Positions 49,620 to 50,341 of a stretch of DNA of 64,000 nt are shown here, one piece after another (within the stretch, counting starts at the first letter, position 1; every line of letters begins with the position of its first letter). Origin of the DNA: an uncultured archaeon (GTDB lineage: Archaea > Asgardarchaeota > Thorarchaeia > Thorarchaeales > Thorarchaeaceae); the NCBI GenBank assembly GCA_964473825.1, contig CAYYQL010000001.1:64001-128000 (forward strand). The letters are read 5' to 3'. The notes under the pieces were generated by a model. That model saw only the letters and a program-made list of their open reading frames with translations. It was not told the origin of the DNA and searched no databases. Position numbers and translations under genes: made by a program.

Positions 49620-50341
49620 TTGCAGACAGCAGCCTAGAAGGTGGACAAGATTGGACACGTATTAGATAGTTGTCTAAGGTCATGCTATGCATTCCATATC
49701 ACAAGCCGCCCTCCGTCTGGGCGTGTGCACCAGAACCATCCGCCGCTGGGATGCCCGGGGCATCATCCACTGCCGTCGCACTCCCGGCAACCACCGCCGG
49801 ATTACTCCCGCTGAGGTGGACCGCCTTCTTGGTGTCTTGCACAGGTCAGTACGGGAGCATGCGGTCACGAAACACTGTGCCATCTATGCCAGAGTCTCAG
49901 GCCATCGTCAGAAGACTGATGGTGACCTGGACAGGCATCTCAAGACCCTGTATCTGGAGAATCTGAAGAACTACCAGCCGCCCAGAGGGTATGGCACTCA
50001 CTCGTGGCGGCTATCGAACAATCTCTGGTCCAAGGTGCTGGACACCATACGGTACATGCGACAGACCCTTGGCCACCGCTACGGCGGAATCTGGACGGTG
50101 AGCCCGGCGTGGACCTCCCAGACCTGCCATGTCTGTGGGGGGCGGGGTGTCCGGGTGGAGCATGAGAGTTCCACGAGGGAGAGAAGGGGTGGGGAGTACT
50201 TCTACTGTGGGAGGTGCGATGAGCACTTCCATGCCGATGTGAATGCGGCACGAAACATCATTCACGTGCAAGATCACCAGTCCAGTGCCGCTCCTGGACG
50301 GACTGCTTGATGTCCAAGTTTGTCCAACTTAAAATGAACGG
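49620..50341 (+). mobile_element. Non-autonomous, internally deleted IS607-family element (722 bp)
   Basis: Inserted at a GG core (GGT shared at both junctions); subterminal TGGACA repeats 10 bp apart at both ends in inverted orientation (49638-49657 vs 50311-50330, 17/20 identical); visibly more GC-rich than the flanks. Confidence 0.92.
49687..50310 (+). CDS. tnpA/tnpB: In-frame TnpA(N-terminal)-TnpB(C-terminal) chimera
   Basis: MerR-type HTH (AALRLGVCTRTIRRWD..G...RTPGNHRR) and serine-recombinase IYARVS..Q..DL, joined to TnpB YLENL, VSPAWTSQTCHVCG, CGRC, ADVNAARNI. Confidence 0.88.
   Translation: MHSISQAALRLGVCTRTIRRWDARGIIHCRRTPGNHRRITPAEVDRLLGVLHRSVREHAVTKHCAIYARVSGHRQKTDGDLDRHLKTLYLENLKNYQPPRGYGTHSWRLSNNLWSKVLDTIRYMRQTLGHRYGGIWTVSPAWTSQTCHVCGGRGVRVEHESSTRERRGGEYFYCGRCDEHFHADVNAARNIIHVQDHQSSAAPGRTA

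Follow-up and report, generated by a model that had tools for sequence, protein, structure and literature searches.

A 722-bp element with a fused tnpA–tnpB reading frame in a Thorarchaeial genome is probably an internally deleted IS607-family transposon

Results

A mini-element in a luciferase-like monooxygenase gene

The window, that is the whole stretch of 64,000 nucleotides that was analysed, belongs to a Thorarchaeial MAG of 103 contigs (G000; 95.7% complete) and contains a short element with one long ORF, which is inserted in a gene encoding a luciferase-like monooxygenase (Table 1). The element has a GC content of 57.6%, compared with ~50% in the flanks, and lies in the middle of a 319-kb contig; its flanks are collinear with two other genomes. 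In two genomes of the same genus (G384:C3 and G383:C118) the host gene is uninterrupted and the sequence corresponding to window ~49620 runs straight into ~50340-50343. A base-level comparison of occupied and empty sites revealed a single GGT in the empty site and one at each junction of the occupied site. The empty sites and the single GGT in G384 and G383 therefore fix both ends of the element and its length of 722 bp, within one base of the extent given in the first-pass annotation (49620-50341), which had been made from the letters of the DNA. The insertion did not duplicate the target, and GG is found at both termini and in the target; this combination is the published signature of serine transposition in the IS607 family (PMC6188088). 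The monooxygenase gene is split and inactivated by the insertion. It is directly adjoined by a 2180-aa ORF on the minus strand (window 42590-49132) with a hydrophobic N-terminal stretch, dozens of DxDxDGxxD repeats (thrombospondin type-3-like, calcium-binding-type) and, at the C-terminus, a hydrophobic stretch followed by a Lys/Ser-rich tail; it probably encodes a giant cell-surface protein.

The host flanks (48900-49620 and 50340-51200) are 85-86% identical between G000 and G384, whereas copies of the element in the two genomes are 94-96% identical. The element lineage is, therefore, much younger than the species split, and it appears to have moved between, or to have invaded, the G000 and G384 species well after they had separated.

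Table 1 Features of the mini-element, its insertion site and related copies. Locations without contig are window positions.
Feature	Location	Strand	Remarks
Mini-element (whole)	49621..50342 or 49618..50339	+	722 bp; GGT common to both junctions
Left end	49621..49686	+	two subterminal direct repeats TGGACAA/TGGACAC at 49642-49658
tnpA TATA box (predicted)	49660-49667	+	TATTAGAT; about 20-27 nt 5' of ATG
Chimeric TnpA-N/TnpB-C ORF	49687..50310	+	207 aa, uninterrupted
tnpA-derived part	49687..49939	+	codons 1-84; MerR-like HTH 3-49, beta-1 strand with catalytic-serine motif YARVS 67-71
Deletion junction	49940..49950	+	11-nt perfect microhomology TCAAGACCCTG, KTL codons, common to tnpA and tnpB
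tnpB-derived coding part	49951..50310	+	about residues 596-719 (~123 codons) of ~720-aa TnpB
Right end	50280..50342	+	hairpin 1 50280-50299; hairpin 2 50306-50318; terminus AATGAACGGT
Right-end tandem repeats TGTCCAA x2	50311-50327	+	repeat D10
3' flank	50343..50362	+	candidate built-in guide in case of a right-end omegaRNA scaffold
Luciferase-like monooxygenase, N-terminal part	50343..50874	-	PF00296, E 2e-41, profile positions 24-173 of 314
Luciferase-like monooxygenase, C-terminal part	49304..49620	-	contiguous with the N-terminal part in G384 and G383
P0002 locus (L015)	ENA ERZ28655181, scaffold_212374		742 bp
tnpA relic	G000 C44:1528-1831		2-bp deletion and truncation
tnpA relic	G384:C2:462390-463261		ATA in place of ATG and truncation
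tnpA relics	G384:C5:222111-222422; G384:C1:506254-506399		frameshift among the relic defects
Gene-less copies, G000	C42:15368, C48:11912, C48:14229, C74:2214, C75:825, C8:419, C3:20106, C3:119582, C81:2929, C45:10706, C50:1809, C40:21393, C6:94758		

Ends of the element and structure of the right end

The ends lack terminal inverted repeats and instead carry multiple subterminal repeats on both sides, as is typical for IS607. The left-end pair (TGGACAA) and the right-end pair (TGTCCAA) each have their two members 10 bp apart and are inverted relative to each other, which gives a 20-nt inverted match of 85% (I1). This layout, from a GG(G)T start to ..CAATGAACGGT, is the same in full-length relatives and in gene-less copies of ~200 bp, and the right-end terminus is conserved across the family. 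TATTAGAT is a probable TATA box of tnpA.

The right end can be folded into two hairpins. A comparison of 41 relatives revealed compensatory changes in 7 of 10 pairs, and the bases paired in 89% of cases versus 26-45% if the partner was slid; none of 500 shuffles reached 89%. Alifold also supported the hairpins, and identity at synonymous sites was 0.57-0.61 in the last 40 tnpB codons versus about 0.35-0.47 before. Upstream of the last ~130 nt no structure signal was found, and window 49400-50600 matched no Rfam family at E up to 1. We also considered that the entire ~400 nt of tnpB that are kept constitute a long guide-RNA scaffold, but both Alifold and the synonymous-site scan confined the constraint to the last 120-130 nt. 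The mini-element keeps both ends predicted to bind the transposase as well as hairpins supported by covariation. By analogy with the guide position in IS607 TnpB systems (bioRxiv 10.1101/2023.11.20.567912), its right end may also keep the sequence encoding the 3' part of the guide-RNA scaffold, in which case the adjoining 3' flank would be the candidate guide.

The ORF joins the N-terminus of TnpA to the C-terminus of TnpB

Pfam analysis of the 207-aa protein identified a MerR-type HTH (PF00376, PF13411, PF12728) at residues 3-49 and a Cas12f1-like_TNB domain (PF07282) at residues 114-191, but no resolvase domain (PF00239). The HTH is followed by the catalytic-serine motif YARVS (67-71), the order expected of a tnpA of the IS607 type and, indeed, residues 1-88 are 73-77% identical on the amino acid level to PF00239-carrying TnpAs of Thorarchaeota named IS607 family transposase. 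Further downstream are LKTL (85-88), LENL with the Glu of RuvC-II (90-93), a zinc ribbon consisting of CHVC (147-150) and CGRC (174-177) and HADVNAARNI with the Asp of RuvC-III (182-191). The single uninterrupted frame and all motifs named in the first-pass annotation were thereby recovered from the ORF, Pfam and the motif positions. The complete PF00239 domain of an autonomous IS607 is missing; the tnpA part stops after codon 84, and next to the join the conserved Gln of DLDRQ is replaced by His. A TnpB nuclease comprises RuvC I-III and WED/REC, of which the chimera keeps the RuvC-II Glu, the zinc ribbon and the RuvC-III Asp, while RuvC-I and all sequence upstream of the kept part are absent. 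Since the recombinase beyond beta-1 is lacking, as are RuvC-I, WED and REC, neither recombinase nor nuclease activity of the fused protein is possible, in agreement with the earlier view that it is dead in both respects.

AlphaFold2, run with an alignment of 65 sequences, predicted a well-folded HTH (residues 1-55, pLDDT > 90) and zinc-ribbon/RuvC-III module (roughly residues 140-190, pLDDT 77-95); the junction region from residue 63 to 137 had a pLDDT of about 42-58 and was predicted to be disordered (pTM 0.39). The confident Foldseek matches were MerR-type domains only, and the N-terminus matched MerR-type DNA-binding domains such as BldC with an rmsd of 1.1 A over 47 residues. A sequence search against solved structures yielded only weak matches to MerR and Cas12f/CasPhi.

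The two genes were fused at an in-phase microhomology

The sequence from 49617 to 49959 is 94% identical to a decayed tnpA (G384:C2:462390-462732), and the sequence from 49940 to 50342 matches tnpB 3' ends, with 96% identity to that on G384:C14, the best in G384, and with 90% (C26), 88% (C15) and 73-76% (C78 and C2) identity to the 3' ends of large tnpB genes in its own genome. The tnpB match begins exactly at 49940 and the closest tnpA match ends at 49959; the two homologies thereby overlap by 20 nt, and over this stretch tnpA and tnpB are identical at 18 of 20 positions, including a perfect 11-mer. To map the junction, the window was compared with a tnpA relative (L072) and with the tnpB relatives on C26 and C15. 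The window has the tnpA base before the 11-mer and the tnpB bases after it and, therefore, the crossover lies inside the 11-mer. The KTL codons stand in the same phase in both genes, in the context ..RQ-LKTL.. in tnpA (..CAG CTC AAG ACC CTG ACT CTG GAG..) and ..HGV-KTL-YLENL.. in tnpB (..GGC GTC AAG ACC CTG TAT CTG GAG..). The join at a KTL microhomology around 49940-49950, as it had been suggested, is thus borne out on the nucleotide level, but the accompanying argument that the fusion is in frame by a one-in-three chance does not hold: as tnpA and tnpB read the microhomology in one common phase, a fusion through it is in frame by construction.

The parent is an ~8-kb transposon with a giant third gene

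Full-length relatives, proposed earlier as the object of a BLAST-type search, were found in five Thorarchaeial genomes (L046-L050 in G318, G366, G392, G365 and G334), and together with the empty sites their end layout confirmed that the mini-element arose by internal deletion with both ends left intact. They are about 8-8.6 kb in total (e.g. L046 1219-9705 and L049 163-8021) and consist of a tnpA of ~200 aa on the plus strand, a giant ORF on the opposite strand and a tnpB of ~720-730 aa, again on the plus strand, which starts 5.1-5.7 kb downstream of tnpA. The giant ORF is about 1545-1838 aa long, with measured lengths of 1644 and 1838 aa at two loci, and had no credible Pfam match even at E up to 10. 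The simple two-gene IS607 parent assumed in the first-pass annotation has, accordingly, to be replaced by an IS607-type transposon of ~8 kb with a 1644-1838-aa ORF between tnpA and tnpB, and since this is the parent, the deletion must have removed about 7-8 kb.

G000 itself has three intact tnpB copies, and on C26 and C2 tnpB is accompanied by the giant ORF but not by tnpA. PF00239 was not found anywhere in G000, and all tnpA copies seen in the genus are relics (Table 1). It seems that the autonomous transposase is either being lost from the genus or is unassembled, while tnpB copies stay intact.

The junction is unique but other derivatives exist

A second copy with the same junction was found neither in G000 nor, besides the window copy, in 400 Asgard genomes, and a peptide-level pattern of the junction had no match in ~185,000 species genomes. 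Among 5.8 billion protein clusters the chimera's own cluster has one member on one contig, an exhaustive HMMER search of 1.84 billion representatives found no protein that matches both halves, and none of the 72 relatives retrieved in a scan of metagenome contigs covers both halves. Several copies with the same junction at different loci, as would be seen in a propagating MITE-like family, did not turn up in these searches; the suggestion of such a family was not sustained, and the single copy seen in all searches is what a one-off deletion should leave behind. A search of a collection of papers for 'TnpA-TnpB fusion' or similar wording found nothing. Alignments that seemed to cross the junction (e.g. 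residues 63-206 and 45-207) were rejected, as they are made up of TnpB only and reach beyond RuvC-II on its upstream side (L054 was checked). Immediately before RuvC-II, the TnpB sequence (..AAIWRKVRRLDREIARQ.. at ~560-590 in C26) loosely resembles the TnpA stretch ..CAIYARVS..DLDRQ.., and because of this resemblance protein searches with the chimera give false junction-spanning alignments.

Another assembly, however, revealed a chimera with a different junction. P0002 has 199 aa, is 64% identical to the window chimera, has the same HTH and TNB layout and is also in frame, but its tnpA part is 8-9 residues longer and its tnpB part starts ~20 residues later. Because its junction differs, P0002 is the product of an independent deletion. 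The contig has an exact terminal overlap of 55 bp, which gives a circular or head-to-tail unit of 687 bp, and in this unit a single GGT connects the right end (..AACGGT) to the left end, at a position homologous to window 49621. An excised IS607 circle is expected to look like this (10.1101/2023.11.20.567912), and the unit may be an excised transposition intermediate of a mini-element, although a tandem pair is also possible. The corresponding circle junction of the window element would read ..AACGGT followed by TGCAGACAGC..

Further derivatives are arranged differently. In L051, L052 and L053, N-terminal pieces of tnpA precede a full tnpB that is in a different frame, L058 has nearly the whole tnpA and then the last 157 codons of tnpB, L041 is a 644-bp element without a fusion and L023 a gene-less derivative of ~480 bp. 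In L026 (G325:C120, 1498-2529, minus strand) an ORF of 343 aa fuses a short internal piece of tnpA (..THRDRLARF) in frame to tnpB from residue ~437 on; the two genes meet at a similar A-R/K-F/W-K patch, with the HTH-coding start in another frame, and this is another join of the microhomology type. Two in-frame HTH fusions in about half a dozen mini-elements are what chance plus microhomology lead one to expect. The 5' breakpoints of truncated tnpB genes cluster: 6 of the 14 3' fragments lying away from contig edges begin within TnpB residues 584-598, close to the RuvC-II motif (L023, L034, L041, L056, G000 C78:1801-1899 and window 49940), and their upstream partners differ. This cluster could reflect a hot spot of recombination or the smallest unit that is retained; scans of structure and of synonymous sites gave no explanation for it.

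In addition, G000 contains at least 13 gene-less copies of ~200 bp, which keep the left end (GGGT..ACAGC..GAA..TGGACAAnnnTGGACA) and the last ~130 nt with the right end (..TGTCCAAnnnTGTCCAAC..CAATGAACGGT). Several of them have a TTTATAT box inside, and host genes end 200-300 bp upstream of the right end of each copy. These copies have the appearance of MITE-like derivatives of the transposon family to which the mini-element belongs, and may encode nothing but a guide RNA.

Selection on the ORF

The tnpB part of the chimera differs from the closest full-length tnpB by 13 synonymous and 3 non-synonymous codons. All three substitutions in the tnpB-derived part that are unique to the window copy are synonymous, but may predate the deletion. 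The chimeric ORF is open, whereas the sister tnpA relics on C44 and G384:C2 are broken. The open frame and the synonymous changes lean slightly toward constraint; a young deletion with changes that occurred earlier explains them equally well.

Discussion

The element in the window is best explained as a non-autonomous, internally deleted derivative of an ~8-kb Thorarchaeial IS607-family transposon, in which the fused ORF is incidental; we assign a probability of roughly 0.8 to this reading. Recombination or slippage within the 11-nt in-phase microhomology would have removed ~7-8 kb and linked codon 84/85 of tnpA with codon ~596 of tnpB, and the 207-aa frame is a direct consequence of the position of the break. 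The parts required in cis have been kept: at the left end the TnpA-binding repeats and the tnpA promoter region, at the right end the repeats and the two hairpins. TnpA supplied in trans could still move the mini-element, and read-through from the tnpA promoter across the right end could provide the three intact TnpBs of G000 with a guide RNA. Since no serine transposase is assembled in G000, the mini-element is probably a stranded relic there. As for the fused protein, it is most likely incidental and looks like a one-off by-product rather than a new protein family.

A different, less likely possibility is that the RNA matters and not the protein. In this case, an omegaRNA from the right end, driven by the tnpA promoter, would guide the TnpBs of G000 to empty target sites and thereby aid retention of the element. 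The compensatory changes in the hairpins and the constraint on synonymous sites over the last 40 codons of tnpB are in line with such an RNA, as are the gene-less copies, in which only the left end and the last ~130 nt are kept; moreover, the intact TnpBs of G000 are 88-90% identical across the shared region, and a role of TnpB and omegaRNA in the retention of IS607 elements has been published (10.1101/2023.11.20.567912). However, Rfam has no match, the structure signal is absent upstream of the last ~130 nt, and the hairpins, which coincide in part with the transposase-binding repeats, could function as DNA.

It is unlikely that the fused protein is functional, i.e. that its HTH binds the TGGACAA repeats and, for want of the catalytic and multimerisation parts, competes with the full transposase or represses it or the tnpA promoter. 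Such inhibitors exist among truncated transposases, e.g. Inh of Tn5, InsA of IS1 and KP of the P element, and the chimera resembles them in having a DNA-binding N-terminus without the catalytic parts and the element's own promoter; it differs in that its C-terminal half comes from another gene, tnpB, and in that spread was not found. The well-folded HTH, which matches BldC-type MerR domains, and zinc ribbon, the native promoter region and start codon, the frame that stayed open with its three synonymous substitutions and the existence of P0002 as a second in-frame chimera would fit a function. On the other hand, each chimera is a singleton with a junction of its own, the in-phase microhomology accounts for the frame, and the other mini-derivatives do without such a fusion; the region around the join is predicted to be disordered, with the Gln to His exchange beside it, and G000 has no transposase to regulate. 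That chimeras arise repeatedly and are retained for a useful HTH-plus-zinc-ribbon protein, which tunes or blocks the transposase or bridges the ends to the TnpB-guide RNA complex, is similarly improbable; if true, the 687-bp circular or tandem contig of P0002 would represent active excision of mini-elements that encode a protein. Finally, a collapse of a full-length element or of two elements into a false 722-bp join is very improbable: G000 is a MAG of many contigs and related repeats do end contigs elsewhere (C15 and C26), but the two halves have just 11 perfect nt in common (18/20), which is far below assembler word sizes, the element sits mid-contig between collinear flanks and an independent assembly contains a chimera of similar size (P0002).

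As an internally deleted transposon, the mini-element can be compared with several known systems. With IS607 and IS1535, which encode a serine TnpA and TnpB, it has in common a MerR-like HTH followed by YxRVS, subterminal direct repeats and GG without duplication (PMC6188088); the IS607 family also has tnpB and, at its right end, structured RNA-like hairpins. The mini-element differs from them in that 84 codons of tnpA and ~123 codons of tnpB form one frame in which no catalytic domain is complete, and the parent differs by its extra gene of 1644-1838 aa and its TnpB of ~720 aa. Like MITEs and PATEs, and like omegaRNA-bearing gene-less derivatives of TnpB elements, it has kept the ends, has lost the transposase and would be mobile only in trans, but unlike them it is single-copy and, with 722 bp and a long chimeric frame, falls between a complete transposon and the copies of the MITE type. 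Altae-Tran et al. (2023; PMC10691335) described aCas1-TnpB loci in Asgard archaea (groups Cas1H-Asgard-1 and -2) and proposed aCas1 as transposase. The Thorarchaeial parent resembles these loci in that its large TnpB and the giant ORF are arranged head-to-head. The ends, the target and the relatives analysed here point, in contrast, to a serine transposase of the IS607 type; the giant gene is wholly lost from the mini-element, and the giant ORF has no Cas1 match in Pfam.

What the fused protein does would matter only if it were shown to act on transposition; for now it is a trap for annotation, a match to 'transposase/TnpB' that is neither. The value of the mini-element lies in its ends. Together with the empty sites, it pins down the ends of an Asgard transposon, the GG(T) crossover and the minimal parts in cis, a left end of ~66 bp and a structured right end. 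This type of element behaves like an IS607 with a serine transposase, and there is no sign that the giant gene moves it. The microhomology-mediated deletion is one step on the way from an element of ~8 kb toward the gene-less copies of ~200 bp in G000.
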